The notes beneath the pieces were generated by a model. The model saw only the letters and a program-made list of their open reading frames with translations. It was not told the DNA's origin and ran no database searches. From contig CASFOP010000005.1 in NCBI GenBank assembly GCA_949296525.1, positions 13,519-77,518 on the forward strand: a DNA stretch of 64,000 nucleotides, in the 5' to 3' direction. Source of the DNA: an uncultured bacterium (GTDB lineage Bacteria > Elusimicrobiota > Elusimicrobia > Elusimicrobiales > Elusimicrobiaceae). How positions within the stretch are numbered: position 1 is the stretch's first letter; every line of letters starts with the position of its first letter. This document shows positions 145 to 56,733 of this stretch, piece by piece. Position numbers and translations under genes: made by a program.

Positions 145-3100
145 TCACAAAGGTTGCGCCATCTCTTTTAATTTAACGTAATCCACTTTGCCCGTACCCG
201 TCAGCGGGATTTCGTCCATTATGCGCACCGTTTTGGGAACGGCCAGTTCGCTGAGGCCCTTTTCTTTGAAATCCGCCAGAATGGCCGCGCGCGAAGCGTC
301 CTTTTGCGTGGTAAACAAAATCAGCTGTTCGCCTTTCTTTTCGTCCGGAATGTTCACGAGCCCGTGCATTTTGTCCGGCCATATAGCGGCCAGTTCCGTT
401 TCCACGGCGGCGAGCGAAATCATCTCTCCCGCGATTTTGGCAAACCGTTTGGCGCGGCCCAAAATTTGAACGAACCCGTCGCCGTCTATGCTGACGATGT
501 CGCCCGTGTCGTACCAGCCGTCCGTGGGCGGTTCCAATACGCCGGGGTTCGTATCGCGCAGGTATCCGGCCATAATGTTTTTGCCTTTGACGAGCAGTTT
601 CCCGCCGTTTTCCACACCCGGGATAGTTTCCAGACGGTGTTCAATCCCCGGCAGTAAGCGTCCCACCGTGCCGCGTTTAAAATACATCGGCGTATTGACG
701 GCTAATACGGGGGAGGTTTCCGTTGCGCCGTACCCTTCCATAATGCGCAGGCCAAACAAATCGTAATACTTGCGGATGGTTTCTTCCTTCAGCTTTTCCG
801 CGCCGACCACGGCCAGCCGTACGGAGTAGAAATCGTACGGGTGGGCCATTTTGGCGTAGCCGTTCAAAAACGTATCCGTGCCGAACAGAATCGTGGCGTT
901 GCGGTCATACACCAGTTCCGGTACGATGCGGTAATGCAGGGGGGAAGGATAGAAGAACACGGGTACGCCTGACAAGAGCGGCAGCAGCGTGCCTGCCGTC
1001 AGCCCGAACGAGTGAAAAATAGGCATGGCGTTAAACACTTTGTCTTTCAGGCCGAAATCCAAAATGCTTTGCAACTGCAAACGGTTGGCCTGGATGTTTT
1101 GGTGGCTGAGGACCACGCCTTTGGGCGTGCCTTCGGAGCCGGAGGTAAACAGCACCACCGCCGGGTCCTGCGCGCTCACGTTTCCGCGCACCTTTTTATA
1201 ATAATGACGCGGAAAGTAAGAGGCCGTCAGGCCGCATACTTTATCCCACCAAGTGATTTGTTGTTTTACGTCCTCCAGATAAATCAGCTCCACGCCGCTT
1301 TTGGCTATGGCTTGGGCGGTTTCTTCCAGCCCCGCCTGTTTGATAAACGCGCGGGAGGTGTACGCTTTTTTAATGTTGGCGGCCCTGCAGCAGGCGAGCA
1401 TATTTTTTACGCCCGTTGAAAAGTTCAGCATACACGGCGTTAAATTAAACGCCCTGAGGCCGAAAAATGCGGCCGACGCGGCGACCGAGTTGGGCACCAT
1501 CAGCCCCACAAAATCGCCTTGTTTGTTTTGCTTGGCGAATTGTTTCCCCAGCGTGAATACGGCGGTTAAAAACTGCCCGAAGGAAACGGGGCGTCGATTG
1601 ATATCGTCCATAATTTTTTTGCCGCGTCCGACGAGTTCCTCGGCGTCCAAGAGCGAATCGAAAAGCGTTTCGTCCGTATTGCCCGCGTCGTACTTCATAT
1701 TAACCATAATTTCGTACAGCCCGCGCAAGGCCGCCTGGCGGCGTGCGCGCCCTTTGATGTCTTCGCCGATTTCTAATTTTACGGGCGGTAAAACGGTCAT
1801 CGTAATTTTACTTTGCGGCCGCGTTTTTAACTGAGTGCCAAACCGAGAGAACAACGAATACTGGCTGCCTTCCAAACAAATGGGGAGCAACTGCGCGTTG
1901 CTTTTATCGGCAATCATGGCTGGACCGGGATAAATTTTCATAAGGCCTCCCGTCGTGGTGATACGTCCTTCGGGGAAAACGACAACCCGCTTGCCGGCTT
2001 TTACTTCCTCAATAATGGACTTTACCGCCATCGGGGCAGTAGGATCAATCGGAAAGTATTTGATAAGGTGTAAAAAGGGCTTGACCCACCACTTTTTACT
2101 GACATATGTATCAATGGCAAAATACAACTGCCCTGGAATATACACCCACAATAAAACGGCATCTAAAAAGGATGTATGGTTGGCAATAATAAGCGCATTT
2201 CCTTGCAAGTTTTTCCAATTTTCCAGCCCGTTTACTTTTACGCCGTACACAAAATTCAAAATTCGTGTCACAATCATACGGATGATGTGGTGCGGCAGGA
2301 GCCCGCAGATGTATACGGCAGCTAACGCGTTGGCAAAAGCAATCACACCAAAAACGGCAGGAATCGTAAAGTGCATAGCGAGCAGTAACGCACAAAACCC
2401 GCTACCGAGCACCATAAAAAGCGAATTAATAATGTTATTGGTGGCAATCACACGAGAGCGAGTATCCCCAGTCGCCAAAAATTGCAGCATAGCGTTAAGC
2501 GGTACGATATACAGGCCGCCGCAGACGGCAAAGCCGAGCAAATCAAGCGTAATGCGTTTGCCAGAAAAAGTTGACAAAAATGCTTTATAATCTATCGCTT
2601 CCGACGGACGGACAAACCCCGCCACGGCGCAGGCTAAGTCCGCCAGGAAAACCGTCATTAAAATCGCGCTGACGGGGACGTATTTGCTGGTAATTTCGCC
2701 TTTCACCAAAAACTGGCAGATCAGGGCCCCTAACCCGATGCCGCAGGAGAACAACGTCAGCAGAAAGGCAAACAATCCCGGCGTGCCGTTTAAAATATCC
2801 GCAGCCAGGGAAGGCATTTGGGCGATAAGCGCCGTACCCAGCATCCAGAACCAGGATATGCCCAAAATGCACAAGAAAATTTCATGGCTTTGTTTGGCAA
2901 ACGCAATGTTTTTCCACGTACTGCGCAGGAAATTTTTGTCGATTTTCAAATCCGGATTGGCCGGCTGCTGCTTGGGAATAAATAAACTGCATCCGAAACC
3001 AAGTATCGCCACCGCCAGGATAATCCCGGGCAGCAGCATTTCATTCGCCGTGATGATGAGCCCGCCGAAAATGGTACCCTGAAAAATGGAGCCGTAGGTA

Positions 3101-3555
3101 CCGGCTTCAATAATACCGTTGCCGGCAATGAGCTGTTTTTCGTTTAAAATATCGGGCAGGATACTGTATTTAACGGGGCCAAAAAATGCGGACTGCGTTC
3201 CCATTAAGAACAACACAAAAAGAAGCAGCGGCACATTGACCGTTAAGAAGCCAATTCCGGATAAAACGGCAATGACCACTTCCAACCCTTTGGTGATTTT
3301 AATCAGCAGGTCTTTGCGGATTTTGTCGGCCAATTCGCCCGCCTGCGCCGAAAACAGAAAAAACGGCAGCATAAAAAGCGCCACGGCGAGCGCCACAATG
3401 ACCGATTTACTGTTGGCGCTGAGCGTGGTTACCTTATAGGTAATAAACGTGGCCATAGCGGTGCGGAAGAAATTATCGTTAAACGCACCCAAGTATTGCG
3501 TGCAGAAAAGCGATAAAAACGCATGGTTAAAGAAAGTTTTAATAAGGGATAACAT
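145..3555 (-). CDS. Tripartite fusion: MFS lysophospholipid transporter (LplT-like) + PlsC-type acyltransferase + AMP-dependent acyl-ACP synthetase (Aas-like)
   Basis: 1136-aa ORF. The N-terminal ~420 aa is multi-helix hydrophobic. It has the HX4D acyltransferase box (ANHTSFLDA), the AMP-binding box LFTSGSEGTPKGV and a C-terminal GTGKVD. Its start overlaps the marR stop (TAATG). Confidence 0.85.
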   Translation of the reverse strand: MLSLIKTFFNHAFLSLFCTQYLGAFNDNFFRTAMATFITYKVTTLSANSKSVIVALAVALFMLPFFLFSAQAGELADKIRKDLLIKITKGLEVVIAVLSGIGFLTVNVPLLLFVLFLMGTQSAFFGPVKYSILPDILNEKQLIAGNGIIEAGTYGSIFQGTIFGGLIITANEMLLPGIILAVAILGFGCSLFIPKQQPANPDLKIDKNFLRSTWKNIAFAKQSHEIFLCILGISWFWMLGTALIAQMPSLAADILNGTPGLFAFLLTLFSCGIGLGALICQFLVKGEITSKYVPVSAILMTVFLADLACAVAGFVRPSEAIDYKAFLSTFSGKRITLDLLGFAVCGGLYIVPLNAMLQFLATGDTRSRVIATNNIINSLFMVLGSGFCALLLAMHFTIPAVFGVIAFANALAAVYICGLLPHHIIRMIVTRILNFVYGVKVNGLENWKNLQGNALIIANHTSFLDAVLLWVYIPGQLYFAIDTYVSKKWWVKPFLHLIKYFPIDPTAPMAVKSIIEEVKAGKRVVVFPEGRITTTGGLMKIYPGPAMIADKSNAQLLPICLEGSQYSLFSRFGTQLKTRPQSKITMTVLPPVKLEIGEDIKGRARRQAALRGLYEIMVNMKYDAGNTDETLFDSLLDAEELVGRGKKIMDDINRRPVSFGQFLTAVFTLGKQFAKQNKQGDFVGLMVPNSVAASAAFFGLRAFNLTPCMLNFSTGVKNMLACCRAANIKKAYTSRAFIKQAGLEETAQAIAKSGVELIYLEDVKQQITWWDKVCGLTASYFPRHYYKKVRGNVSAQDPAVVLFTSGSEGTPKGVVLSHQNIQANRLQLQSILDFGLKDKVFNAMPIFHSFGLTAGTLLPLLSGVPVFFYPSPLHYRIVPELVYDRNATILFGTDTFLNGYAKMAHPYDFYSVRLAVVGAEKLKEETIRKYYDLFGLRIMEGYGATETSPVLAVNTPMYFKRGTVGRLLPGIEHRLETIPGVENGGKLLVKGKNIMAGYLRDTNPGVLEPPTDGWYDTGDIVSIDGDGFVQILGRAKRFAKIAGEMISLAAVETELAAIWPDKMHGLVNIPDEKKGEQLILFTTQKDASRAAILADFKEKGLSELAVPKTVRIMDEIPLTGTGKVDYVKLKEMAQPL

Positions 3556-8899: not shown

Positions 8900-8959
8900 A
8901 TGGATATCCAACCGAAATGATGCCGTGCAAAACCGGCCGTATCTATCTAAGGAGCTGTT

Positions 8960-9553
8960 ATGGATTTTTTCTTTTCTTCTGTCATCACATTGTGCTTGGT
9001 CATGGATCCCTTCGGGAACATCCCCCTTTTTATTTCTGCGCTGAAAAAGGTGGCACCGGAACGGCGCAAGACCGTGCTTATCCGGGAGCTGGCTATTGCA
9101 CTGGGCATTACGCTGGCTTTTCTGTATTTTGGGAAATGGTTCCTGCACATGTTTGGCATACATTCTTTTTCCATGAGTATTGCCGGAGGCATTATCCTTT
9201 TTATTATATCCATGAAACTGGTATTTAACAACGAAGACGAAACACATGCCAACCCCAAAGAAGAAGAGCCTTTTATCGTACCGCTGGCCATCCCGCTGGT
9301 AGCGGGGCCGGCGGTTCTGTCCATCGTCATGATTTTATCGGCCCAGCAGCCAAACAAACTTATTACGCTCTCTGCAGTATTGGTGGCCTCTGCCATTAAT
9401 TCGGCGGTGTTAATGCTGTCTTTCCCTATTAGCAAACTGCTGGGCAAAAGGGGCCTGATTGCCATAGAACGCCTGACCGGCATGATCCTGGTGCTTATGT
9501 CCGTGGATATGGTAATGGGCGGCGTGTCCGAATTTATTAAAGGCGGCCTATAA
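8960..9553 (+). CDS. MarC-family (UPF0056/NAAT) integral membrane protein
   Basis: 197-aa ORF with the N-terminal LVMDPFGNIPLF motif and six hydrophobic segments. AAGGAG lies upstream. Confidence 0.8.
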   Translation: MDFFFSSVITLCLVMDPFGNIPLFISALKKVAPERRKTVLIRELAIALGITLAFLYFGKWFLHMFGIHSFSMSIAGGIILFIISMKLVFNNEDETHANPKEEEPFIVPLAIPLVAGPAVLSIVMILSAQQPNKLITLSAVLVASAINSAVLMLSFPISKLLGKRGLIAIERLTGMILVLMSVDMVMGGVSEFIKGGL

Positions 9554-9648
9554 TTCCGCGCAGCAGCTTTGCCCCTTATCGCCGCAACCGTACGGACAGG
9601 TCGGGCAGCGTTTTTAGTTGCCGGGAAATTAAAACACAAGGAATATAT

Positions 9649-10215
9649 ATGAAAAGATATGTATATAAAAAGGGTTTTACGGTGACTGAACTGGCCATTT
9701 GCGTATTGATTATAGGCATTCTGGCCGCCATATCCGTCAGCTATTACGGCCGTTTTATAGAGCGCATGCGCATTGCAGAGGCCGACACGGTCATCGGTTC
9801 GGCCATCCCGGCACAGGAACATGTTTTTCTGCGTTCCCAACACTACACGCGCGCCTGGCATAAGCTGGATTCTGCCCCGGTCATGGTGCGCGAAGCCAAA
9901 GCCACAAACGACTATTCCAACGGTTTGGAAAATACTATTTTCTATACGCGAGGCGGCATGCTGTCCGGCACGCCGAATGCCGGGTTTGCCATTTCCTTTG
10001 AAACGGACGCCACAAACCGCTGGTTTGCCGTAGCCAAACGCGTGGGGCACGGGGGATACTCCTACTCCCTGATCAGGCCGTTTGACAGCAATATTACCGT
10101 CTGCGTGCCGGACTGGACCAATCAAAAAGACATAGAAATGTGCATGGACTATATGGGCGTGGATACGGCCGACGAACTTACGGACAACCCCATGGCGGCA
10201 GAAGCTTCCAATTAA
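9649..10215 (+). CDS. Prepilin-type N-terminal cleavage/methylation domain protein (pilin/pseudopilin-like)
   Basis: The N-terminus is MKRYVYKKG|FTVTELAICVLIIGILAA. It has a C-terminal Cys pair. Confidence 0.8.
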   Translation: MKRYVYKKGFTVTELAICVLIIGILAAISVSYYGRFIERMRIAEADTVIGSAIPAQEHVFLRSQHYTRAWHKLDSAPVMVREAKATNDYSNGLENTIFYTRGGMLSGTPNAGFAISFETDATNRWFAVAKRVGHGGYSYSLIRPFDSNITVCVPDWTNQKDIEMCMDYMGVDTADELTDNPMAAEASN

Positions 10216-10243
10216 CATTCCCTTCCCACCCCTTCTTTTTGCG

Positions 10244-10270
10244 GCCCCGGAGAAACCCCGGGGCTTTTTT
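10244..10270 (+). terminator. Intrinsic terminator
   Basis: GCCCCGG-N7-CCGGGGC plus T6. Confidence 0.75.
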
Positions 10271-10394
10271 ATTTTTAAATGAATACCAAAAAAAAACCGC
10301 AAGCCCCTTTCAAAATTCCCATGTGTTTTGCCAAGCTAAAAATGCCCGCAGGTAAAGCGCCCGGCACGGTACAGGAATATTTTTAAAAAAATAC

Positions 10395-10478: not shown

Positions 10479-11063
10479 ATGAATAAGAAGGGTTTTACCC
10501 TGGTTGAACTGCTGGTGGTTGTGTTAATCATCGGCATCTTGGCCGCTATGGCCCTGCCGGCTTATTTTAAGTCGGTTGAACGCGCCCGCATGGCGGAAGC
10601 GGATACGCTGCTGGGCAGCATTTCCCAGGCGCAGCAGAGACGCTGGATGAAAACGGGCAGCTATGCCAAAATGTTCAGCGGCCTGTATGCCAAAATGTTC
10701 AGCGGCCTGGATGTGTCCCCTACGTCTATTGCTACGGGTGTATTCTGCACCAAAGGCGGGACGACTGCTAACAAAACGGATTCAACGGCCTGCACCACCA
10801 ATGGCTTTGCCATGATTTTGGATCAGGCCAACGCGGGCAATTTGAATGCTGCCACAGTAGAAGCGGTACGCGTGGGCAACGCCCAATACACCTATACGCT
10901 CAGCCGCCCGTACCAGAGCACGGCTGTAACCTGCACGCCGGGTACCTCTACCGAAGATGCGGCCATCTGCGCCGAATACTGCGGTATTGATTCGCTGACT
11001 GGCGCGAGCTGCACGACAGGCGGAAGCTCTACCGGTACCGATGCAGATGGAGATGGAGATTAA
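10479..11063 (+). CDS. Prepilin-type pilin-like protein (likely strongly expressed copy)
   Basis: The N-terminus is MNKKG|FTLVELLVVVLIIGILAA. It has an AGGAGG SD, its own sigma70-like promoter, a 5' UTR hairpin and a terminator. The C-terminal part is Thr/Ser/Cys-rich. Confidence 0.85.
   Translation: MNKKGFTLVELLVVVLIIGILAAMALPAYFKSVERARMAEADTLLGSISQAQQRRWMKTGSYAKMFSGLYAKMFSGLDVSPTSIATGVFCTKGGTTANKTDSTACTTNGFAMILDQANAGNLNAATVEAVRVGNAQYTYTLSRPYQSTAVTCTPGTSTEDAAICAEYCGIDSLTGASCTTGGSSTGTDADGDGD
10662..10709 (+). repeat. Perfect 2 x 24-bp in-frame tandem duplication inside the pilin gene
   Basis: TATGCCAAAATGTTCAGCGGCCTG occurs twice (10662-10685, 10686-10709), encoding YAKMFSGL twice. Confidence 0.95.
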
Positions 11064-12483: not shown

Positions 12484-12534
12484 GACATAAAAAAACCACG
12501 CCTTGCAGCGTGGTTCAAATGGCGCCCTCTAGGA
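12484..12534. repeat. Direct repeat copy 2 (51 bp), overlapping the genuine tRNA-Glu 3' end
   Basis: Identical by eye to 12275-12325. Confidence 0.9.
12489..12515 (-). terminator. Intrinsic terminator of the tRNA-Lys/tRNA-Glu unit
   Basis: An 8-bp GC-rich hairpin plus T7 on the minus strand, 4 nt after the tRNA-Glu CCA. Confidence 0.7.
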
Positions 12535-12594
12535 GAATCGAACTCCTCTTTTCGGATTGAAAATCCGACGTCCTAACCGATAGACGAAGAGGGC
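12520..12594 (-). tRNA. tRNA-Glu (anticodon UUC)
   Basis: Hand-folded cloverleaf: GCCCTCT/AGAGGGC acceptor, anticodon loop TTTTCAA, T arm AGGAG-TTCGATT-CTCCT, discriminator G, encoded CCA. Confidence 0.9.
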
Positions 12595-12600
12595 AAAAAG

Positions 12601-12672
12601 TGCGCCCGGTGAGACTTGAACTCACGGCCCCCCGCTTAAAAGGCGGATGCTCTACCACTGAGCTACGAGCGC
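12601..12672 (-). tRNA. tRNA-Lys (anticodon UUU)
   Basis: Hand-folded cloverleaf: GCGCTCG/CGGGCGC acceptor, D arm GCTC-AGTGGTA-GAGC, anticodon loop CTTTTAA, T arm GTGAG-TTCAAGT-CTCAC. CCA is not encoded. Confidence 0.9.
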
Positions 12673-16521: not shown

Positions 16522-16548
16522 AAACAAAACCCCCGCTTCCGCGGGGGG
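16522..16548 (-). terminator. Intrinsic terminator after the pilin gene
   Basis: CCCCCGC-TTCC-GCGGGGG plus a T-rich tail on the minus strand. Confidence 0.7.
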
Positions 16549-16550: not shown

Positions 16551-17018
16551 TTAATTAAGCAGGAAATACTTCCCGTTCCCATATTCCGTATCCACCGGGC
16601 CCAGGCTGGCACAAATCCGTTTGTCGCTTTCCGTCAGGGCATGGCACCAGTGTTTACCGTGATACGTAACGTCATTTTGTAACGTAAACTCCAGAACAGG
16701 CCCTTTTCCGGTACGGGGAGCGGCGGAACAGGCCCGGTTTTGAAAACATTGGAAATAATAATTTGCCGTGTACAAATACCCGTTTGCATGGGTTTTTATT
16801 CCCAAGTCCGCCAGATCATTAGTATACTTCCCGTTGCTTAAATAATACAGCTCCTGGGCATCGGTTATAGCTTTTAACTGCACCAGGGCATCCACGGTTC
16901 TGCTCTTGGCCACAGCTACCTGATATTGCGGTAAGGCTATGGCGGCCAAAATGCCAATAATTAAAACCACGACTAACAGCTCTATGAGCGTAAATGCAGC
17001 GTTTTTCTCTCTCTTCAT
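16551..17018 (-). CDS. Prepilin-type pilin-like protein (Ala at -1)
   Basis: The N-terminus is MKREKNAA|FTLIELLVVVLIIGILAA. It has four C-terminal Cys and the conserved promoter cassette upstream. Confidence 0.8.
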   Translation of the reverse strand: MKREKNAAFTLIELLVVVLIIGILAAIALPQYQVAVAKSRTVDALVQLKAITDAQELYYLSNGKYTNDLADLGIKTHANGYLYTANYYFQCFQNRACSAAPRTGKGPVLEFTLQNDVTYHGKHWCHALTESDKRICASLGPVDTEYGNGKYFLLN

Positions 17019-17024
17019 GTGAAA

Positions 17025-17052
17025 AGTGTATCAAAAAAAAAAAACAGGTCAA
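17025..17052 (-). promoter_or_regulatory. Pilin cassette promoter TTGACC-TG-T12-GA-TACACT, 6 nt before the ATG
   Basis: -10 at 17025-17030, homopolymer at 17033-17044, -35 at 17047-17052. The same cassette occurs at three other pilin genes. Confidence 0.55.
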
Positions 17053-17149
17053 GGCTGGGCAGTTAAACGGCAAAAAACACCGACGGGAAAACGACAGCTT
17101 TTTTGATAGGGTCATGCCAGCCTTGTTTCGGCATATCCACTGCATGAGT

Positions 17150-17185
17150 CATGCTGAATTTATTTCAGCATCTCCTCCGCTTTTG
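17150..17185. repeat. Intergenic repeat copy 1 (~36 nt)
   Basis: CATGCTGAATTTATTTCAGCATCTCCTCCGCTTTTG is similar to 17350-17386, exactly 200 bp away. Confidence 0.7.
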
Positions 17186-17349
17186 TTTTTATAAAGGCTG
17201 TAAAAAAATTAAGAGTCATCCCCGGGTGCCTTTGCCGGGGATCTTCCTTTGGAATGCTGTTTTATCAAAACAGAACAACCACTTTTCCATCGGAAGATTC
17301 CCGACTACAACCTCGGGAATGACCTTGTTTTATTTCCTGCCAAACAGGC

Positions 17350-17386
17350 CATGCCGGACTTGTTTTCAGTATCTCCTCCGCTTTTC
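17350..17386. repeat. Intergenic repeat copy 2 (~37 nt)
   Basis: CATGCCGGACTTGTTTTCAGTATCTCCTCCGCTTTTC. It shares a 15-nt identical core, ATCTCCTCCGCTTTT. Confidence 0.7.
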
Positions 17387-17396
17387 GGCATATACC

Positions 17397-17423
17397 AAAA
17401 GCCCCGGCATGGCCGGGGCTTTT
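17397..17423 (-). terminator. Intrinsic terminator after the ankyrin genes
   Basis: GCCCCGGC-ATG-GCCGGGGC flanked by A4 and T4. Confidence 0.7.
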
Positions 17424-17445
17424 ATAACCAACCGTAAAGAACTCT

Positions 17446-17838
17446 TCATTCTTCCCGGGCGCCGATAGACTGCAGATACCTTGCCAGCATGGTGGCCCCA
17501 CTCTCTTTAGCTATGCTTAACACGGTTTCGCCTCTGTAATTTTTAGCGTTTATATCCGCGCCGGCAGCGATTAATTCCATGGCCGTTTCCCGTTGATTAT
17601 TCCTACAGGCCTCCATCAGTGGGGTATACTCATACCTGCCTTTAGCGTTTACATCCGCACCCGCTGCTATTAACGCTTTCACTCTTTCCAAATTCCCTGC
17701 ACCGGCGGCCCTCATCAGCATCGTATCCCCTTGCTCATTTACAAAGTTTACATCCGCCCCCGCTGTTATTAAAGCCTGTACCACTTCCATATATCCCAAA
17801 CGGAAAGCTTCCCCTATGGCTGCTATTTTTTCTCCCAT
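17446..17838 (-). CDS. Ankyrin-repeat protein
   Basis: 130 aa with repeated G-TxLMxAxxxGxxExVKALIAAGADVNA units. Confidence 0.8.
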   Translation of the reverse strand: MGEKIAAIGEAFRLGYMEVVQALITAGADVNFVNEQGDTMLMRAAGAGNLERVKALIAAGADVNAKGRYEYTPLMEACRNNQRETAMELIAAGADINAKNYRGETVLSIAKESGATMLARYLQSIGAREE

Positions 17839-18572
17839 TGGCGGGGACTGCGCTCATCACACTCCGTATATATAAACACGGCATTCACATCTGCACCCGC
17901 TGCTATTAAAGCTTTTACCATTTCTAAATTTCCCGAACGGGAAGCCTTCAGAAGTGCCGTACCCCTCCTTTCATCTTTAGCGTTTACATCCGCTCCTAAC
18001 GCTATTAATGTCTTTACCATTTCCCAATTGTCCTCACAAGCGGCCTCTAAAAGCGCCATGCCTCCACATCGTTTGTCCGGAGCATTTATATCTGCCCCCG
18101 CCGCTATCAGGGCTTTGGCCACTGCCCAATGGCCGGCCTGGGAAGCATACATAAACGGCGTAGCGCCCAATTTGTCTGCGTCATTCACAGTTGCTCCCGC
18201 CGCTAGCAATGCCATTACCACATCCAAATGGCCTTTATAGGAAGCTGAAATAAGCGGCGTTTTTCCATCTTTGTCTGCAGCATTTATTTTGGCCCCGGCT
18301 GAAATTGATTCTTTTACAACTTCTAAATGATTATTAAATGAAACCGCCTGCAACGCTGTTTCCCCACAGGCATCCTCCGCATTCACATCCGCTCCGGCCA
18401 TTATCAAGGCTTTTACGACTTCCGCATTACCCAGGGTTGAGGCCTCCAGAAGCGCTGTACGCCCCCTCCATTTATCTTTGGCATTCACATCGGCACCCGC
18501 CTCTATTAGCGCTTTTACTTTATCCAGATTGTTTCCTTTCACGGCTTCCAGTAACTCATTCGTTGCGTTCAT
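17823..18572 (-). CDS. Ankyrin-repeat protein
   Basis: 249 aa with about seven ankyrin units and no signal peptide. It overlaps the next ankyrin ORF by 16 nt. Confidence 0.8.
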   Translation of the reverse strand: MNATNELLEAVKGNNLDKVKALIEAGADVNAKDKWRGRTALLEASTLGNAEVVKALIMAGADVNAEDACGETALQAVSFNNHLEVVKESISAGAKINAADKDGKTPLISASYKGHLDVVMALLAAGATVNDADKLGATPFMYASQAGHWAVAKALIAAGADINAPDKRCGGMALLEAACEDNWEMVKTLIALGADVNAKDERRGTALLKASRSGNLEMVKALIAAGADVNAVFIYTECDERSPRQWEKK

Positions 18573-18933
18573 ATACTTGGTGCCTCCCCGCTATCAAAAT
18601 ATACCCGCCTTGCCCCGTATCCTGCCTTTTCCGCCCGGGCAATCCATTCCGCCCCTCATGCCATTTACAAAAATTATACTATTTCCCCCGACATTCAACG
18701 GCAGGCACGCCGACCGCGGCAAGCAAAACCGCCTAAAATGCCTCCAGAGCGGTTTTTATTGACCGGATACATTTTCCCATATGCAAAATTTATCAAAAAA
18801 AACAATGCAAGGCCTTTTAAAAGGCCCGATCCAACCAATACTCCGGCTCGGTTAGCTGTTTGTTATACATAAGAAGAACGCCCCGCAAACCCGGGGCGTC
18901 CGTTCGGAAAATAAATCTCTGCGCAGGCTGACG

Positions 18934-19434
18934 TTATATTTTTCTCAGGAAGCCAGATGCGTCCCTCTGGGTAAGGCGGGCTTCCAGTTTTTTGGCATAC
19001 TGGGCATACAAATCTTCCAACAGCCAGGTGAAAAGGCTTTTCTTCTTCTCATCCGGCAATTTTTCCAGATAAGCCAACAAAGCGGAAAAGTCGGAAAAAA
19101 TCTCATTCTGCGTATCTTCATCCGCCGCCTGGTGGAAAAAAGCCCCCGCCTGTTCCCCGGACAAGAACAGGAAATAAGCCCCTTCTTTTTGCATATTTAT
19201 TCCGCTTGTTATATCTTTATACAGCAGAAAACAAATAAAATTTTTTTCCTGCACGGGCAACTGGCGCAAATATCCTTTTAACACGGAAAAATCAATCCCT
19301 CGCCGCACATCTTTTTCCTGCTGTTGCGCAGTCCGGTGCAATAAACTGCGCGGTACCCCTTTCCCCTGCAAAGGAGAAGAATACATGCAGAAAACCACCA
19401 GCAGACACATGGCAAAAATTGTTCCCTTTTGCAT
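18934..19434 (-). CDS. Hypothetical secreted protein
   Basis: 166 aa with the N-terminal hydrophobic signal MQKGTIFAMCLLVVFCMYSSPLQG. Confidence 0.55.
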   Translation of the reverse strand: MQKGTIFAMCLLVVFCMYSSPLQGKGVPRSLLHRTAQQQEKDVRRGIDFSVLKGYLRQLPVQEKNFICFLLYKDITSGINMQKEGAYFLFLSGEQAGAFFHQAADEDTQNEIFSDFSALLAYLEKLPDEKKKSLFTWLLEDLYAQYAKKLEARLTQRDASGFLRKI

Positions 19435-26260: not shown

Positions 26261-27733
26261 ATGAGGTTACTAGCCTGTTTTTTGTTGATTTGTGGCGCGG
26301 GGCCGCTGGCTGCGGCCGATTTGACCCCGTCCGTACTGGCGCTGGCGGACAGGCCCGTTTTGCGCGGGACGTCCTGGGCGGCCGCGGCCTCTTATACGGA
26401 CGGGGAAGAAATTTTTTCCGTCCGCCCGGACTTACGCCTTGCCCCGGCCTCTTCACTCAAGCTGCTTACTTCCGCCGCCGCACTGGAAACCTTCGGCCCT
26501 TTTCACCGCTTTGAAACGCAAATTTACGCCGACGGCGCGGCGGACGAAAACGGCGTCCTGCACGGCAATTTGTATATCCGCGGCGGAGGCGACCCGACGC
26601 TGGGCTCTGCGCGCGTAACGGGCAGCCCGGCCTGGCCGCAGCTGCTGGAAAGCTGGAGCCAAAAAATACGCCGTGCGGGCATTAAACAAATCACGGGCAA
26701 TATTTACGGAGATATTTCTCTTTTTTCCGGTCCTTCCCTGCCGGACAAATTTAACTGGCAGAATATAGGCAATTATTTTGCCGCACCCGCTACGGCGCTG
26801 GCGTTTAACGACAATTCCTTTGAAATTACTTTTTCCCCCCAGCCACGGGACGGCGCCCCCGTAGAGGTGGCATCTTTCTCGCCGGAAACAGAAGGGCTGA
26901 AAATACGCTCTTTCGTTACCGCCAGCGAAAAAGACCGCCGCGACCAAGCCTATGTCTATGCGGCCCCCGGCCAGTACGATTTGGAAATTTACGGCACGGT
27001 ACCGACGGCCTCCCTGCGCGGTCTGACCATACGCGCTGCCCTGCCAGACGCACCGCAGCTGTTGGTAGATTTGCTGCAACAACAGCTGGAAAAGGACGGC
27101 GTCGGCATAGACGGCAGCGCAATACTGCTGGATCAGACGCCCGATTATACCGCCATGAACCTGCTTTTTACGCATCAGTCACCCCCGCTGAAAGATATTT
27201 TGTATATCGTCAACAAACGCAGTTTTAATTTCTATGCGGAAATGCTGCTGCGCATGCTGGCCGTGCAGGCGGGCAAGGCGGGCAGCGTGGAGGAGGGCGT
27301 TAAACAGCTGTATGCTTTTTTAAATAAAAACGGCATAGACACCCAAAATATGCTCTTATATGACGGGAGCGGGCTTTCACGCGACAATCAGATTACCGCC
27401 GCAACACTGCTGGACGTGCTGTCCCTGATGAGCACCAGCCCTTATTTTTCCTATTATTACGACTCGCTGGCTACGCCGGACGACCGGGGAGATTTGATTT
27501 TGCTGCGCCGCTTTTTGAATCCGTTTAAACGCGGGCGGGACGTACACGTCAAAGGAGGCACCATTGACGGCGTCAAAGCCCAGGCCGGCTATGTAAAGGA
27601 CAAAAACGGCAGGCTGATTGCCTTTGCCTTTATGGCCAACAACCTGCTGGACAAGAATGAGGACATCAACCGGTTTTATGAAGAGCTTCTAAAAAAACTG
27701 CTTTTGCTGCCGGATCAGGATTTGACCAAATAA
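26261..27733 (+). CDS. dacB: D-alanyl-D-alanine carboxypeptidase/endopeptidase (PBP4, S13 family)
   Basis: It has the signal peptide MRLLACFLLICGAGPLAA, the SxxK box (PASSLKLLT), SGL and a KGGT-type box. ATG at 26261. Confidence 0.85.
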   Translation: MRLLACFLLICGAGPLAAADLTPSVLALADRPVLRGTSWAAAASYTDGEEIFSVRPDLRLAPASSLKLLTSAAALETFGPFHRFETQIYADGAADENGVLHGNLYIRGGGDPTLGSARVTGSPAWPQLLESWSQKIRRAGIKQITGNIYGDISLFSGPSLPDKFNWQNIGNYFAAPATALAFNDNSFEITFSPQPRDGAPVEVASFSPETEGLKIRSFVTASEKDRRDQAYVYAAPGQYDLEIYGTVPTASLRGLTIRAALPDAPQLLVDLLQQQLEKDGVGIDGSAILLDQTPDYTAMNLLFTHQSPPLKDILYIVNKRSFNFYAEMLLRMLAVQAGKAGSVEEGVKQLYAFLNKNGIDTQNMLLYDGSGLSRDNQITAATLLDVLSLMSTSPYFSYYYDSLATPDDRGDLILLRRFLNPFKRGRDVHVKGGTIDGVKAQAGYVKDKNGRLIAFAFMANNLLDKNEDINRFYEELLKKLLLLPDQDLTK

Positions 27734-28197
27734 TAATTTATGTTGTTTCCCGTATGGTCTATATCCGCAGCATAGGTTTTACAGACCGCATTTTGCATAG
27801 AATCATTTTGACTGGCCAAGCACCATACTTTCCCGGACTGCAGGCTAAATTCAAAAGAGGGCAAACCGCTTTTTCGACTATTCACATGCAAACGGTAATA
27901 GGTCCCTTCTCCGCCGGCGGCATTGTCATCATAATTGGAAGCTTGGTACCGATAAGAATCTGAATCCTGAACTTGCATATCCAACAGGGTTAAATCCGTT
28001 GTATATTGGCCATTAGCCATAAAATAACGCTGAAGAGCCTGCACCAAAGCGGCCCCATTTATAAAAGCTTCAGAAGCGCGCGAACGCGCTACGGCCTTGG
28101 TATACTGGGGCAAAGCGACGGCAGCCAAAATACCAATAATTAAAACAACGACTAACAACTCTATTAGGGTAAATGCGGCATTTTTTTGGTTCTTCAT
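27715..28197 (-). CDS. Prepilin-type pilin-like protein (Ala at -1)
   Basis: The N-terminus is MKNQKNAA|FTLIELLVVVLIIGILAA. ATG at 28197, with the conserved promoter cassette upstream. Confidence 0.8.
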   Translation of the reverse strand: MKNQKNAAFTLIELLVVVLIIGILAAVALPQYTKAVARSRASEAFINGAALVQALQRYFMANGQYTTDLTLLDMQVQDSDSYRYQASNYDDNAAGGEGTYYRLHVNSRKSGLPSFEFSLQSGKVWCLASQNDSMQNAVCKTYAADIDHTGNNINYYLVKS

Positions 28198-28203: not shown

Positions 28204-28232
28204 AGTATATCAAAAAAACAAAAACAGGTCTA
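28204..28232 (-). promoter_or_regulatory. Pilin cassette promoter TAGACC-N17-TATACT, 6 nt before the ATG
   Basis: -10 at 28204-28209, interrupted tract (T5 G T7 on the coding strand) at 28212-28224, -35 at 28227-28232. Confidence 0.5.
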
Positions 28233-32971: not shown

Positions 32972-33071
32972 GCGCGCACACGCTTTTGTGCAGTTTAAAA
33001 GAATACGGAAAATCTCTTCGGCGTCTAACGCAAAGGGATTTTTCCGTCTTATGGAAACACAGGGAGGAAGC

Positions 33072-36000
33072 ATGAAAAAAATTATTTTGTTGGCGGCGTG
33101 CCTGCTGCCCATGGGACTATGCGCCCAAAACCGACAGGCGGCCGACGCGGCCTTTGAAAACGGCCGCTTTGCCGAAGCGTTGTCTTTTTACCAGGAAGAG
33201 TTAAAAACGGCCAAAGGCAACTCTTTATATGAGGCGCAGCTGCGCGTCATCGCCAGCCAGTATATGCTGGGACGTTATCAGGCGGCGGCGGAAAGCGCGT
33301 TTACTTTTGAACTGCCTCAAAACCCGCTGTGGAAAGCCCGCTTCCTGCTTTACCGCACGCAGACGGCACAGCGCGTCAGTACCCTTTACAACCCCATTTT
33401 GCCCGATGCTTCCGAAGACGGAGCCTCCCTGCCGCAGCTGAGCAAAGAGCAATGGAACGCAAAAATAGATGAATGTTATGAGCAGCTGTGGGACCTGCGC
33501 ACCTTTCTAATCAACGCCCCCATTGACCAGGAAACCCTGGTATTGGAAATAAAAGATACCGACCAAAAAGCCATCCCCACCCTGTTTGATTTTGTGGTGC
33601 TGCAATGGAAAAACCGCCTGCTGTCCTCCCCGGCAGTGCCGGTTCCCCTGCGCGCGGCCTCGGTGTTGACGCTGGATTACAAAATCCCCTCCAAGGCAAA
33701 AGACGACGCGCAAAAAGCCGTTTCCCTGCTGGCCGAAGCGGCCGAACTGGGCGGCAAAGGCCGCGCCGATGCGCGTATCATCTGGCAGGCCCAGCGGCTG
33801 ACGCTTCCGTTTGAATACCCCAATCTGTTCAGTTTTGAAAACCAGGATGCACAGCGGCTGGAAGCGGCACAACTGCTGCAAACGCTGTCGGGGTATTCCA
33901 AAGAGAAAAAAGGCTTCCTGGCCAAAATCAGCCAGGCGCTGCTCTCTTCCGGCGCGCCGTACGGCAAAGCCTACGCTGCCCAACAGGCTGCCTACCTGTT
34001 AAACGACGCCAAAGAATATGAGCAAGCCGCCGCCGTGTGCGACTGGGCCTCGGCGGAACTGGACGGCGGATATTACGCTAAATCCTGCGCCCGGTTTGCC
34101 GAAGGTATCCGCGCGCCGGTGCTAAACCTGGACGCGTCGGCCTTCAGCCAGGATCCCGCCCAGACGAAAGTTTCGTTTACCGCGCGCAATATTAACCAGG
34201 TATATGTACGCATTTATTCCGCCAGTGAGGCCGATTTGAAAAAATGGTATAAACAACAATATCCCGGCACCGTTAATTCCTGGCGTTATCTGACCACCGT
34301 GCCCGCCCAGCAAATCCCGCAGCTGCTTGCGCGCACGCCCGTGGCGGAAACGGACGCGGCCCTGACCTATGACAAGCCGCATGACTTTAAACAAACCGAT
34401 ATACGTCTGCCCCTACCGGACAAACGTGGGTTTTATGCGGTGCTGTTTTCCTATGACAAAGACTTTAACCCCGACACCGCCCCCGTGCAGGCGCTGGTGC
34501 TTAACAGCACGGACCTAGCGCTGTTTGCTTCCGCGGCGATTGAAGGCGACCCCGCCGATTACCGCACCAAAGAGAGCAAAACGTTTACCCCCAACCTTTT
34601 CCGCATTTACGCGCTGGATTTAAAAACCGGTGAACCGGTGGCAGATGCGGACGTGGTGTATTATACGGACTGGAAAGGCAACACCGAAACGGACAAAACC
34701 AATGAAAACGGCCTGCTGACACTGGCGCGCAAAATCAAAACAAACAGCGACAGCAACAACAATTATTCCGTACTGCCCAAAGCGGTCAAAGGCGCCAGCA
34801 CCGCTTTTATGACCAATGCGCTGTATTTCAATTATTACAGTTCCTCCCCGTTCAGCCTCTACGCCGAAATGGACCGCGCCATTTACCGCCCCGGGCAAAA
34901 AGTACAGCTGGCGGTATACGGATTTGAAAAAGCCGGACGCGGCCTGAAAACCATGGACGAAAACTCCCGTGTGACGCTGACGGTGCGCGACGCCAATCAC
35001 CAAAAAATCCACGAAAAAACCTTAACGCTTAACGCCTACGGCACGGCACGCGATGAAATCACCCTGCCCGAAGACGGCCTGCTGGGTTATTACACCGTGG
35101 AAACCGCTTATAAATGGAATAAACGCAACGTATACGGGCACGCCAGTTTCCGCGTGGACGAATACAAACGCCCTGAATACGAAATCACGTTGGCCGACGC
35201 GGCCAAACTGCAATACGGCAAAGAAGCCTCCATTACCGGCAGCGCCAAATATTATTTCGGCGCACCGCTGGAGAAGGCCTCCGTCAAGTACAGCGTACAC
35301 CGCACCTATTTCCGCCCGCCGTTCTGGTGGTGGCGGCCGTTTAATCTGACCGCCGCGCGCGAGTTTATCGCCGAAGGGTCCACCCAAACGGATAAAGAAG
35401 GAAATTTTACCGTCAAGTTTACCCCCGAAGCGGGACAGGACGACGGGTTTCCTTCCGTGTTTACGGTGCATGCCGAGGTGATGGACGCTTCCGGCCGCGT
35501 CATTGAAACACAGCATACTTACAAAGCCAGCCGTCAGCCGCTTTTCTTCCAGGCATCATTTGACAAAGGTTTCTACGACGCCAATACCGAAAGCCCGCTG
35601 GCCCGCATTAAACTGACCGATGTTAACGGCCAGGCCGCGGATGGAAAATTTACCGCTGAAATTTACGAACTGGAAAACGTACTTTCCGAGCCGGAAAACA
35701 GTCAGGATATCCTGCCGTATTCCGAACAGGGCAGTCTGGAACAGCTCTATGGAAAGAACAAAGAGCTGCGCCGCATATCCAAAAAATCCTTCAGCCTCAA
35801 AAACGGCGAAGAAGCCCAGTTGCACCTAGAAGCCCTGCCCGAAGGCATTTATAAACTCAAACTGCAAAGCAAAAACGCCGACGACGCGGAACTGGTCTTC
35901 CTGGTGGCGGACAAAACCTCCCGCCTGGCGCTGCCCGCCGTGGCCATTGCCCAGCAGGAAAAATATTATCCGGGCTCCCAGGCTAAAGTGCTTATCGGCG

Positions 36001-39000
36001 CGCAGGGCTTAAACGGCGCCAAACGCGTGGAAGTGTACGAAAGCGGCGAATTTTTGGCCGCGCGCGAGCTGACGGGCGCGGGAGCCGGCGTGTACAGCCT
36101 GCCCATACAGGAAGGCTGGCGCGGCGGCGTGTACCTGCGCTGGTTCGGCGCGAGCGATTATAAATTCTACACAGCGCAGACATTTATCAATGTACCTTTT
36201 AACAATAAGGAGTTGTCTTTGCACATTGATGTGCCTGCCGCGGTTAAACCCGCCGAAAAAGTATCCTGGAGCGTAACGGCCAAAAACGCCGCCGGCGACC
36301 CCGTACAGGGCCAGCTGTCCGCACGCGTATATGACAAATCGCTGGACTATTATGCCTCTTCGGCCCAAAGCGTTTTGTCATTAAACGGCCTGTATCCTTC
36401 TTACGGTTTCGGCGCAGGCCTGAACGACAGCGGTTTTAACGTATACGCCACGTCCCTGTTCACGCAGGAAAAAGAAACGGAAATCTTAAACGCGCCGATA
36501 ATGCCGCGGCTGAATTTGCAGCCGTACTTCCGCGCATATGGGGCCACGTCCCGTTCCCTGGCAGGCGGCGTCATGCTTAAAGCCGCCGCGCCCGCCATGG
36601 CGTCCGTGCAAAATTCCGCCGTCTTTGACACGGCGGCGCGTGACGGTATGGAAATAGCGGTGGAAGAGTCCGCCGTCACGGCAGACGCCGGCGTTTCCGG
36701 AGGCAGTGCGGAAAACGAAACGGCACAAAGCGCGCCGCGCACGGACTTTTCGGAAACGGCGTATTTTAACCCCATGGTGCCGCTGCAAAACGGCAAAGGG
36801 AACCTTACCTTTACCATGCCTGAAAGCCTGACCGCATGGAACCTGGTGGCGTTTGCGCTGACGCGCGACGCAAATTTCGGTGCTTATACGGCGCAGACCG
36901 TCACACAAAAAGACATTATGGTACGCCTGTCGCTGCCGCGCTTCTGGCGCGAGGGTGACGTCAGCACGATTGTAGCGCAGGTCACCAATTTAACGGATAA
37001 AAAACGCTCCGCCGAAGTAACCCTTGACCTGATGCAGGACGGCCAAAACGCCGCGGCAAAATTCGGCATAGAAAAAACGGCGCAAAGCCTGTCCGTTCCC
37101 GCGGGCGGCACGGCAGAAGTCACCTGGGCCGTTACCGTACCGCAGGGCGTGGGCATTTTAAATGTCACCGCCACGGTGCGCGCCGCACAGGACAGCGACG
37201 CCGAAAGCCGCCAGCTGCCCCTGCTGCCCGCCAAAGAACGCTTGGCAGAAAGCGTTACGGCGGCATTGGATATCGGCACGCAAACCCTGAAACTGGACAA
37301 TCTGCTGACACCCGACGCCACGCGTGAAGTTTCTTCCGTTACCCTGCGGGTGGATCCGGGGCTGTTGCTGTCGGTGTTTAATGCCATGCCGCAGCTGTTA
37401 AAGCCGCGCCATGAGGACGCGTTGAGCGTGGCCGACCGCTATGTGCCGCTGTCGGTGGTTAACGGTTTTTATAAGACGTATCCGCTGTTGCAAAACGCAG
37501 TGGCGGAACTGCCCAAACGCGACAGCCAAACCCCTTCGTGGAATGAACAGGATCCGGCGCGGCTGATGCTGCTGTCGCAAACGCCGTGGCTGCAGGACTC
37601 CCTGGGCGGGGCAACCCGCGAAGAGTTCCTGACGGATTTGTTTAATCCTTCCGCCGTGGAAAAAGCCCGCGCCAAAGTCGAAAAAGACCTGGCCAAATAC
37701 CAGACGGCTTCCGGCGGATACAGCTGGATGCCCGGCGGCACGCCCAGCGAATTTATCACCCTGCGCCTGCTTTCCGCATATGCGGAGGCGCTGCGCTACG
37801 GAGGCCAAATCCCGCAGGCCTCGGCCAAAAAAGCCCTGGTCTGGCTGGCCCCGCGCATTGAAAAAAGCCTGAAAGAATCCGCCGGCTCCGCTTCCACCGT
37901 GGCGCAGGCGCTGTACGCCGCGTATGTGTTTACGGCTTTCCCGCAGGACTGGAAAGAAATTAAAGAAGCCCCCGTGCAAAACTGGCTGGATTACGCCGAC
38001 CAACACGCCCGGTATATGACGCCTTTGGGGCAGACGTACGCCGCCGCGGCCTATTACCGCCTGGGCAAAAATACCAAGGCGCAGAATTATCTGGACGTGG
38101 TGCTTTCACAAATGCGCACGGACCCCGTGACGGGCTCTTATTTCGCACCCGAAGCGCAAAGCTGGCTGTGGTACAACGACACCCTGGCTACGCAAACGGC
38201 TACGCTGCGCACGCTGCTGGAAGTACGCCCCGAATCGGACAAAGCGCAGGGACTGGTCAAATGGCTGCTGTTTAACCGCAAAGCCCAGGCCTGGGATTCT
38301 TCCGCCGCTACGGCAGACGCGGTGTACGCCCTGCTGGATTATATGAAACGCAACGGCCTGCTGGACGACCCCGCCGAATATACCCTGCAATGGGGCGACA
38401 AAAAGGAAACCCTGCACTTTGAACCGCTGGACTGGAGCCAGCAGCTGGCCTGGACGCAGCAGGGTCAAAACGTGGAGGACAAATATTATACGGCTTCCGT
38501 GACCAAACGCGGCGGTCTGACGGGCTTTGTCACGCTGGACGCGGTCTATACTACGGCCAATGCCCTGCCTTCCCCCGAAGGCGTACTCAATGTAACGCGC
38601 CAGTATCTGCTCAAATATACGGAAAACGGCACGGAAAAAGTACGCCCTCTGCAGGAAGGGGAAGCCTTGCCCGTGGGCAGCGAGGTAGAAGTGCGCCTGA
38701 CGCTGACGGCTTCCTCCGCCTTTGATTTCGTGGTGTTGAGCGACCCCAAGCCCGCCGGCTTTGAAAGCACGGAACTGTTAAGCGGCTGGAGCAGCGACGT
38801 GCTCAGCTTCTACCGCGAAAACCGTGATGCGGCCACTAACTTCTTCTTTGACCGCGTGCCCGCCGGCACCTATACGCTGCGTTACACCCTGCGCCCCACG
38901 CTGGGCGGTGATTACCATGCTCTGCCCGCGCAAGTGCAGTCCATGTACGCGCCGGAATTCTCGGCGCATACGGGTGCAGACCGGCTGACCGTACAAGCCT

Positions 39001-46294: not shown

Positions 46295-46527
46295 AAAGTC
46301 CTCCGTGTATTATCCAAAACCGTCAATTTCCGTTTTTCTGCATACAAGCAACGTAAAATTTTATTAAAAGGGCAAAAAGGTCTTTGAAACAGATTAAAAT
46401 ATCCTTTTTAAGAAAATATTTTCCGTTCGCCCTGCCTTTGTGCCCGTTGTTGGAAAAGGGGCAAAACCAGCCGGCTCACAGACTGAAAAAGCTAGGACAC
46501 ACATGCCCCTTTTTACAAAATCAAAAG

Positions 46528-46869
46528 TGGAGGTGGGGGGATTCGCACCCCCGTCCGAACATCCTAACAGTTCAGGCCCTACAGGTTTATCCGCGCCTGA
46601 TAATCGCGGGGTAAGCGCGCGGAGGCACCCCCGTGATTTGTTCCGTTGGTCTTAAGCGAAGCAAGACGAAACGCGCCAGCCTCGCCGCATTCCGCATGAT
46701 GACTGCCCTGCCTCCGCGTGCGGAAAGCGCAAAGGCGGCAGTGGACTAAGCGTTAGCCCAAGCGACTTGATGGTCGTTAGTTATTTTTTTGGCCCTGTTT
46801 GAATTGGCCTGGCCAACCAATACCTGCTCCCGAGCCGTAACAGATACCCGTCGAATCTATTACACCCCC
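46528..46869 (-). ncRNA. ssrA: tmRNA (SsrA)
   Basis: The 5' end is GGGGGTGTAATAGATTCGACGGG. The 3' end is GGACGGGGGTGCGAATCCCCCCACCTCCA. The acceptor helix has a G3:U pair. An internal tag frame AAC GAC CAT CAA GTC GCT TGG GCT AAC GCT TAG follows an A-rich stretch. Confidence 0.9.
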
Positions 46870-47443: not shown

Positions 47444-47526
47444 GGGCTGGTGGCGGAATGGTAGACGCGACAGACTTAAAATCTGTTGGCCGCAAGGCCG
47501 TGGGGGTTCGAGTCCCCCCCTGCCCA
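47444..47526 (+). tRNA. tRNA-Leu (anticodon UAA)
   Basis: Hand-folded: D arm GCGG-AATGGTAGA-CGCG, anticodon arm ACAGA-CTTAAAA-TCTGT, long variable arm, T arm GGGGG-TTCGAGT-CCCCC. There is one U-U mismatch in the acceptor stem. Confidence 0.85.
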
Positions 47527-56175: not shown

Positions 56176-56733
56176 TTACCAACAATAGAAAACAAACCCG
56201 GAGGTTTCTTCGTCTATTTGCCCGTTATAGTTACAGGCCTCTGCCCCATGGCTCCGGCCCAGGTTTATACAACGCCCGTCGGAAAGGGGGCACTGCAGGA
56301 CAAACTGCCGCCGGCCGTTCCTTTCTTCGTAAACCAAACGGGCCAAGCTCCCGGAGGTCCAATAAAAATTGGCCCAGGCAGCACGGCTGCGCAGCACCAA
56401 ATTAAACCTCCGTCCGCCGCATGTAACGGCGCACAGGCTGCTGTCCTGGCAGCTGTCCCAGTTATCGGCCGGGATGCTAACAGACAGATCCGAAAAATGG
56501 AAATAACTGCCGTCCAAATCCTCTTTATTCGGGACGGGATAGCCCCCTTGTTCCATAGCCGCCACGGCCTGGGCCTGCACCAGGCTGCGCAGTATGGGCA
56601 TCACACAGGAGACAGCCGCTTTGTCCGCGGCACGCTGGTATTGGGGAAAAGCCACGGCAGCCAAAATACCAATGATTAAAACCACCACTAACAGCTCTAT
56701 TAGGGTAAATGCGGCGTTTTTCTTATTTTTCAT
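56176..56733 (-). CDS. Prepilin-type pilin-like protein (Ala at -1)
   Basis: The N-terminus is MKNKKNAA|FTLIELLVVVLIIGILAA. The C-terminal half is Cys-rich, and the conserved promoter cassette lies upstream. Confidence 0.8.
   Translation of the reverse strand: MKNKKNAAFTLIELLVVVLIIGILAAVAFPQYQRAADKAAVSCVMPILRSLVQAQAVAAMEQGGYPVPNKEDLDGSYFHFSDLSVSIPADNWDSCQDSSLCAVTCGGRRFNLVLRSRAAWANFYWTSGSLARLVYEERNGRRQFVLQCPLSDGRCINLGRSHGAEACNYNGQIDEETSGFVFYCW

Follow-up and report, generated by a model that had tools for sequence, protein, structure and literature searches.

By analogy, the systems closest to the promoter element described here appear to be the fim promoters of Bordetella and the vlp promoters of Mycoplasma hyorhinis. 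The element is a cassette in which a run of T's, twelve and uninterrupted (T12) in three of its four copies, fills the spacer between the −35 and −10 hexamers, and it stands upstream of four type IV pilin-like genes in a 64,000-nucleotide (nt) stretch of DNA, the whole of which we call the window, from an uncultured bacterium of the Elusimicrobiaceae (GenBank assembly GCA_949296525.1, contig CASFOP010000005.1, positions 13,519 to 77,518 of the forward strand). The Elusimicrobiaceae are widespread, poorly studied gut bacteria with a very large pilin-like gene family. In Bordetella pertussis and B. bronchiseptica, fim2, fim3, fimX and fimN are likewise scattered paralogues for major filament subunits, each with a conserved homopolymer promoter element. 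C-stretch length sets transcription and differs among strains (C10–15 in fim2, C13–18 in fim3; PMC1891110), deletion of a single C turns fim3 off (PMC10172299), and B. parapertussis carries interrupted tracts, C6TC3 and C9TC8 (PMC1891110). The poly-C of fim lies between the BvgA site and the −10 box, whereas the poly-T of the Elusimicrobiaceae fills the −35/−10 spacer itself and ends in the TG of an extended −10. Furthermore, the fim genes encode chaperone–usher fimbriae and number three or four, whereas the Elusimicrobiaceae proteins are type IV pilin-like and a homology search of the databases gave more than 5,500 relatives, a lower bound. Leaderless mRNAs are absent from fim, whereas pilin genes here have a leaderless geometry, and the function of the fim tract has been shown by experiment, whereas that of the Elusimicrobiaceae tract is predicted from sequence.

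For the vlp genes of M. hyorhinis, insertions and deletions (indels) in a promoter poly(A) are described as turning the genes ON or OFF independently of one another (Citti and Wise 1995, as relayed in PMC10502178). The likeness lies in a family of surface-protein paralogues, each gene having its own conserved A/T-homopolymer promoter. The vlp genes, on the other hand, are clustered and encode lipoproteins of a wall-less Mollicute, whereas the pilin genes are scattered, and high-frequency switching has been shown for vlp, whereas the Elusimicrobiaceae tracts show polymorphism between samples around one strongly modal length. The poly-T of the Helicobacter pylori sabA promoter also varies in length among strains by slipped-strand mispairing (PMC2715451). 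Unlike the present family, sabA is a single gene, whose coding region contains a repeat as well. Its poly-T adjoins the −35 region and acts as a graded modulator, unlike a tract that fills the spacer. In Neisseria meningitidis porA and opc and in Haemophilus influenzae hifA/hifB, the number of repeats within the spacer sets spacer length and promoter strength. The same is true of a repeat between −35 and −10 in Mycoplasma mycoides vmm (PMC10502178). These spacer repeats (porA/opc, hifA/hifB, vmm) are poly-G, poly-C or TA and number one or two per genome, in pathogens, whereas the cassette belongs to a family that spans a lineage in a phylum of gut commensals.

Our searches of the literature yielded no paper on pilin promoters in Elusimicrobia, and we know of no description of phase variation in Elusimicrobiota. 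What appears to be new is the phylum (animal-gut Elusimicrobiota), the gene class (type IV pilin-like), the breadth (many species and paralogues) and the link to leaderless geometry. Our best explanation, to which we give a probability of roughly 0.55, is that the cassette is a strong σ70-type promoter special to the pilin-like family, with a spacer length that would be set by slippage. Tract length would then probably tune or switch each pilin gene separately.

The T-tract promoter cassette

All four copies lie on the minus strand and are named here by their approximate position in kilobases (kb). By direct reading, the 17k copy (core 17025–17052) runs TTGACC (17052–17047), TG, T12 (17044–17033), GA, TACACT (17030–17025), tttcac and the ATG at 17018. 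The 56k copy (core 56740–56767) has TTGACC (56767–56762), TG, T12 (56759–56748), GA, TACACT (56745–56740), tttcgc and the ATG at 56733, and the 62k copy (core 62948–62975) has TTGACT (62975–62970), TG, T12 (62967–62956), GA and TACCCT (62953–62948). In the 28k copy (core 28204–28232), TAGACC (28232–28227) and TG are followed by T5GT7 (28224–28212), which reads A7-C-A5 on the plus strand, then by GA, TATACT (28209–28204), ttgcgt and the ATG at 28197. An earlier sequence-only reading had placed the cassette in front of four of the six pilin-like genes of the window, with one run broken by a single base and a spacer of 17 nt there instead of 16, and the minus-strand reading bears out all four sites as well as the broken run. 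That reading had also described a common cassette of about 55 nt. This holds for the 17k, 28k and 56k copies, which share about 55–65 nt including GTTTAAC/T; the 62k copy shares a 28-nt core with a looser upstream region, T-rich and then A-rich. Similarly, the cassette does lie upstream of the 62k pilin gene, as had been stated, but it does not adjoin it, a leader of about 60 nt intervening before the ATG at 62881.

The 27-nt core of the cassette, searched with up to three mismatches, gives three matches in the window versus none in 100 dinucleotide-preserving shuffles, and across the 64 kb no A/T homopolymer other than the three T12 runs reaches 10 nt. A run of nine A's at 10288–10296, considered as a fifth cassette, lacks the hexamers and sits beside a terminator between the two pilin genes that have no cassette. 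Nor do we regard T12 as the tail of an intrinsic terminator, given the lack of a G+C-rich hairpin before it and of any terminator call there in the scan; the fold of the region is not significant either (z = −1.45). At gathering score, an Rfam scan of the window placed no RNA family at the cassette, its matches being one transfer-messenger RNA (tmRNA) and three tRNAs.

A promoter scan recognised the −35 box, which as TTGAC(C/T) is close to consensus, the 16-nt spacer and the −10 box; the 17k copy matches at 9 of 12 hexamer positions, and a TG was flagged directly before its −10. This extended −10, which the sequence-only reading had not described, is made up of the tract's final T and the G after it. 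As TGn plus TAnnnT it is seen in the forms TGATACACT, TGATATACT and TGGTATAAT, and at the level of sequence match the TG is kept in all 31 distinct cassettes that we collected. The cassette is very probably a σ70-type promoter with an extended −10, judging by these motifs. Upstream of the −35, the position-wise composition of the 31 cassettes shows a T-rich zone, an A-rich zone and then GGCC; at the 17k copy the T-rich and then A-rich block spans 17053–17095 (minus strand) and contains GTTTAAC at 17068–17062. The block has the position of an UP element or activator site, and may function as one.

The distance between promoter and gene adds a further feature. At 17k, 28k and 56k, exactly 6 nt separate the end of the −10 box from the ATG, and there is no purine-rich Shine–Dalgarno sequence. 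The same 6-nt distance recurs in other species (our loci L018, P0051 and the second pilin gene of L023), giving six distinct loci in all, and since it recurs in unrelated copies, the hexamer assignment is independently supported. Transcription is expected to start 7 nt after the hexamer, and therefore at the A of the ATG in these three genes, whose mRNAs are thus predicted to be leaderless. The 62k-type copies instead have a leader with a Shine–Dalgarno sequence rather than leaderless geometry.

The T tract cannot be regarded as the general promoter style of the organism. Ordinary promoter-like sites in the window have spacers of 16–17 nt of mixed sequence, and the tract therefore marks this promoter class, not the organism's promoters overall. 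One of these ordinary sites, TTGATT-17 nt-TAAACT with an AGGAGG Shine–Dalgarno sequence, is found at the cassette-less pilin-like gene at 10479–11063. The usual optimum for a −35/−10 spacer is 17 nt, and A-tract DNA is over-twisted, with about 10 base pairs (bp) per turn; it is possible that a 16-nt spacer containing T12 is optimal owing to this over-twisting.

Tract length among strains and species

The sequence-only reading had proposed that the tract acts as a phase-variation switch, and comparison of tract length among related strains favours the idea. Orthologous loci were found by exact-protein look-ups with the window pilins, the neighbouring RidA and QueH, and five homologues. At 62k, the window and one contig (L076) have T12 and two contigs (L075, L077) have T11; the tract is the only indel, with no single-nucleotide polymorphism (SNP) in 721 shared columns, and L075 and L077 otherwise match the window over 870 nt. 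The 17k tract is T12 in four contigs and T13 in one (L056), and a different pilin of 165 amino acids (aa) in the slot between ribosomal protein L9 and RidA has T12 in three and T9 in two. At 56k we found T12 in three contigs, a 4-nt deletion in one and T4GT7 in another. Among the homologues, P0051 has T9 in five contigs, T11 in two and T6GCT6 in one; P0096 has T12 in two (with six similar contigs not shown) and T13 in one; P0103 has T12 in six and T11 in two, the other 725 bases being the same; P0117 has T12 in four; and P0108 has T12 in eight and T7CT4 in one, a divergent copy whose upstream region also differs. Two further loci served as controls. The interrupted 28k tract is T5GT7 in all five contigs, the same in four other samples (L067–L070), which fits the earlier suggestion that this copy is a locked variant, and the degenerate tract of P0002 is T7 in all ten. 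Length is thus polymorphic at seven of nine pure-tract loci and at neither of the two controls.

Overall, 7 of 13 indel events fall in the tract, which makes up about 2% of the alignment columns (binomial P about 2e-9). The tract is, we conclude with high confidence, a mutational hot spot that changes far more often than its flanks. Variant lengths are also present on contigs that are long or have good coverage (L103, 193 kb with coverage of about 31; L101, 140 kb; L055, 25 kb; L118, 18 kb), so artefacts are unable to explain all of them. Short-read contigs often end in or beside the cassette (L002, L060, L066, L071, L073), and these breaks are caused by the identical 27-mer in paralogues and possibly by length heterogeneity.

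Beyond the close relatives, a scan of GTDB, with one genome per species, the hexamers and short T anchors fixed and up to 16 spacer positions free, returned 50 stretches. About 17 of these come from metagenome-assembled genomes (MAGs) of Elusimicrobiaceae/Elusimicrobiales, every one with a pure T tract, and the matches from outside the Elusimicrobiota phylum have mixed spacers. T12 is the mode, and T13, T11, T10, T9 and T7 also occur. Throughout, the spacer is 4 nt longer than the tract, and as no other change compensates, natural alleles have spacers of 11 to 18 nt. A scan of JGI metagenomes with the cassette core gave six pure-tract matches, five before prepilin genes and the sixth at a contig end; another JGI scan, with a tract-length-neutral pattern from downstream of the tract (the −10 box plus the 5′ end of a leaderless pilin gene), gave no match. 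Among the fetched loci, two pilin genes outside the pattern picks also have T12, and several others have no cassette. About 200 kb of sequence from the lineage contains 26 A/T runs of at least 10 nt, and every one of them falls within the cassette; the loci had been picked for having it, and the informative point is therefore that no other long A/T run is present. We do not consider recent duplication alone to be the cause of the shared cassette, as T12 and the hexamers persist in species whose flanks cannot be aligned.

Nearly all the cassettes from the GTDB scan precede a prepilin-type gene, and this gene is leaderless or else follows a leader of 30–410 nt with a Shine–Dalgarno sequence. Non-pilin genes are found behind the cassette as well, namely a secreted HExxH protein of 416–431 aa with the motif FFHEMLHGW (L003, L004) and a secreted protein of 802 aa (L007). 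Because such secreted genes carry it, the promoter class is a small surface and secreted regulon and not strictly one of pilins. The controlled genes are thus of the surface or host-interaction type, the prepilins being joined by other cassette-bearing genes for signal-peptide proteins.

A proposed length-set switch and its alternatives

Slippage is expected at uninterrupted homopolymers of about 8–9 nt or more, and the tract is T12 at three sites in the window and T9–T13 in relatives. We propose that an uninterrupted T12 would gain or lose T's by slipped-strand mispairing, and that each change would reset the distance between −35 and −10, from 16 nt with T12 to 15 with T11, 17 with T13 or 13 with T9. 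T12 would be the selected full-activity length, and shorter or longer alleles would retain the activity of the extended −10 alone, so that expression of the gene falls or ceases. Such changes would be heritable and reversible, each paralogue would vary independently, and interruption by a G, as at 28k, or decay to T7 would stabilise the tract. At 17k, 28k and 56k, the promoter so modulated would start transcription at the A of the ATG. We put the odds of an adaptive switch, whether of the on/off or of the volume kind, at about even.

A number of observations weigh against such a switch. T12 is found in 19 of 27 cross-species cassettes and in all six JGI matches, and among pure-tract contigs in 8 of 8 at P0108, 4 of 4 at P0117 and 6 of 8 at P0103. 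The proposal of the sequence-only reading is thus upheld in part: the tract does vary between strains and is set in the promoter spacer, but the dominance of T12 argues against a fast switch. At P0051, T9 (five contigs) and T11 (two) go with different SNP backgrounds, and the length there may change on the time scale of strain divergence and not within populations. The extended −10 may let the promoter tolerate a change in spacer length. Slippage in Illumina sequencing or in the polymerase chain reaction (PCR) at 12-nt runs could lie behind some of the one-T differences in short, low-coverage contigs. Finally, some pairs of assemblies (ERZ272569xx/ERZ28653xxx and ERZ172929xx/ERR106105xx) are possibly one sample assembled twice, and since some ENA and Logan assemblies probably share samples, the independent observations are fewer than the contigs.

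The main rival explanation builds on several of these points. It holds that the T tract is purely an element of structure or strength, either a rigid, over-twisted A-tract that sets the angle between −35 and −10 or a T-rich −16 region, and that length variants are neutral or mildly harmful products of slippage. The modal T12 across many species with unalignable flanks would follow from it, as would the long invariant sample series at P0108, P0117 and most of P0103 and the correlation of tract length with SNP background at P0051. T-rich stretches beside extended −10 boxes are, moreover, a promoter feature in some other bacteria. However, the mixed spacers of ordinary promoters in the window mean that the tract is no general requirement, and about 30% of the cross-species cassettes are non-modal, with spacers down to 11–15 nt, which is many for pure stabilising selection. 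Interruptions could also be tolerated, as the 28k copy with its 17-nt spacer indicates, yet most copies stay pure. We regard a purely structural role as unlikely, though it is the most serious of the alternatives.

A different concern is that the length differences are artefacts of assembly or sequencing and that the true tract is T12 everywhere. Several one-T alleles do sit on short contigs of probably low coverage (L075, L077, L136, L137, and L062 with coverage 3.4), and contig breaks are frequent at the cassette (L002, L060, L066, L071). Yet T9, T11 and T13 are present on the long contigs L103, L101, L055 and L118, differences of 3 and 4 nt are untypical of read errors, the same variant was recovered by different pipelines (L075 from ENA and L077 from Logan; likewise L136 and L137), and the T5GT7 and T7 controls are constant across 15 contigs, which together make the artefact account very improbable. 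The tract and its flanks might instead form the site of a class-specific regulator, or the promoter of an alternative sigma factor, with length variation being incidental. The restriction of the cassette to one functional class, that is, prepilins together with the HExxH proteins of L003 and L004 and the 802-aa secreted protein of L007, would suit this, as would the conservation of TG after the −35 and of G(A/G) before the −10. The hexamers are, however, standard σ70, there is no dyad symmetry, and the pilin genes stand singly amid housekeeping genes, with no linked regulator gene. We hold this reading to be improbable, and a regulator would in any case be compatible with a switch, given that the C-stretch of Bordetella fim lies between the activator site and the −10.

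A σ70-type promoter with a slippage-set spacer thus remains our preferred explanation. Its broadest form would be a lineage-wide contingency system, in which dozens of scattered pilin-like genes per genome and a few secreted proteins, each with a T12 promoter that in many cases drives a leaderless mRNA, are toggled independently, so that cells differ in their filament subunits, with T12 as the ON length and G-interrupted, locked copies marking constitutive genes. Such a repertoire would be comparable to Vlp or Fim. We offer this extension tentatively, as somewhat less likely than not. If the preferred explanation is true, a shared, length-labile promoter would account for individual variation of pilin-like genes, the pattern TTGACYTG-Tn-GRTA would provide a simple marker for finding the regulon in any MAG, and homopolymer phase variation would extend from the classical pathogens to a commensal phylum. 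In practical terms, assemblies tend to break at the cassette, and tract differences between samples are worth tracking and should not be polished away. The leaderless geometry also yields a testable prediction on translation start in Elusimicrobiota.

Pilin genes, leaders and neighbouring features

The six pilin-like genes of the window comprise the four with a cassette (minus strand) and two without (plus strand). The 17k gene (16551–17018) encodes a prepilin-type protein of 155 aa beginning MKREKNAA/FTLIELL (31.8 bits with PF07963 N_methyl, for which the cut-off is 21.2) and is followed by a terminator-like hairpin at 16530–16547. The 28k gene (27715–28197; 160 aa) and the 56k gene (56176–56733; 185 aa) are of the same type and share its leaderless geometry, and the 62k gene (62381–62881; 166 aa) begins MKKG/FTLIELL. 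The two cassette-less genes, at 9649–10215 and 10479–11063, serve as internal controls. Five of the window genes score 31.8–35.3 bits with PF07963 (cut-off 21.2), and the motifs were also read directly. The proteins have the features of a class III signal peptide, namely the motif (G/A)/F-T-L-I-E with Glu5, followed by a hydrophobic helix. The leaderless pilins have Ala at −1 (KNAA/FTLIELL, with motifs at 16997, 28176 and 56712) instead of the canonical Gly, which is present in the 62k and 10.5k genes (KKG/FTLIELL). The open reading frame (ORF) at 9649–10215 (MKRYVYKKGFTVTELAICVLIIGILAA...) overlaps an ORF of 451 aa on the opposite strand (8947–10302, minus) that has a TTG start and is probably spurious.

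The pilin genes are single genes amid unrelated housekeeping genes (RidA, QueH, TGT, RuvA, a histidine kinase and a PBP4-type peptidase), and the ten window ORFs scanned against Pfam included none for the machinery of type IV pili or type II secretion. At the slot between L9 and RidA (window 16551–19434; L053–L062, L090–L099), the pilin alleles differ by strain or species. They include 155/156-aa leaderless forms with the 17k-type cassette, a 165-aa form with the 62k-type cassette and a 151-aa form with a decayed T7 cassette, and this points to cassette-like replacement in which pilin genes are swapped. In the window strain, extra genes, including two for ankyrin-repeat proteins (17446–18572), are inserted upstream in this slot.

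The leader of the 62k gene (62882–62947, minus strand) contains a mini-ORF of 17 codons (62943–62890), a AAAAAGCC...GGGCTTTTT hairpin and a GGAG Shine–Dalgarno sequence. An attenuator was considered here and rejected, as the hairpin (−12.7 kcal/mol, z = −1.9) is not significantly more stable than shuffled sequence. The opening ATGAAAAAAATAAAAAGCCG... of leaders of the 62k type can be aligned to the 5′ end of leaderless pilin genes and forms a mini-ORF of 14–17 codons. By this alignment, the 62k leader resembles the remnant of an earlier leaderless pilin start, to which a new pilin gene with its own Shine–Dalgarno sequence became joined. In L053 (1781–1862), an 11-bp inverted repeat, CCTATACATGG / CCATGTATAGG, joins the −10 and Shine–Dalgarno regions (−19.4 kcal/mol, z = −3.85); this stronger fold probably includes bases upstream of the transcription start. 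Short hairpin-forming repeats, GCGGAGGAGATRCTGAAA... and ATGCCGAAACAAGGCTGGCAT, lie at about 17100–17400, and other species have GTCATTGCGAGCG... and GGATCCCGGATCC... (leaders in L025, L048 and L121–L124). Such repeats sit upstream of pilin promoters or within leaders, some MAGs translate them as long N-terminal extensions of the pilin ORF, and they resemble repetitive extragenic palindromic (REP) elements.

Elsewhere, the window carries the tmRNA gene (123.5 bits) and the three tRNA genes, at 46525–46869 (minus), 12523–12672 (minus) and 47444–47526 (plus), as well as a bacterial alpha-2-macroglobulin of 2007 aa (32988–39011, plus). A 1136-aa fusion of a major facilitator superfamily (MFS) transporter, an acyltransferase and an AMP-binding enzyme (145–3555, minus) resembles a lysophospholipid transporter / acyl-ACP (acyl carrier protein) synthetase.

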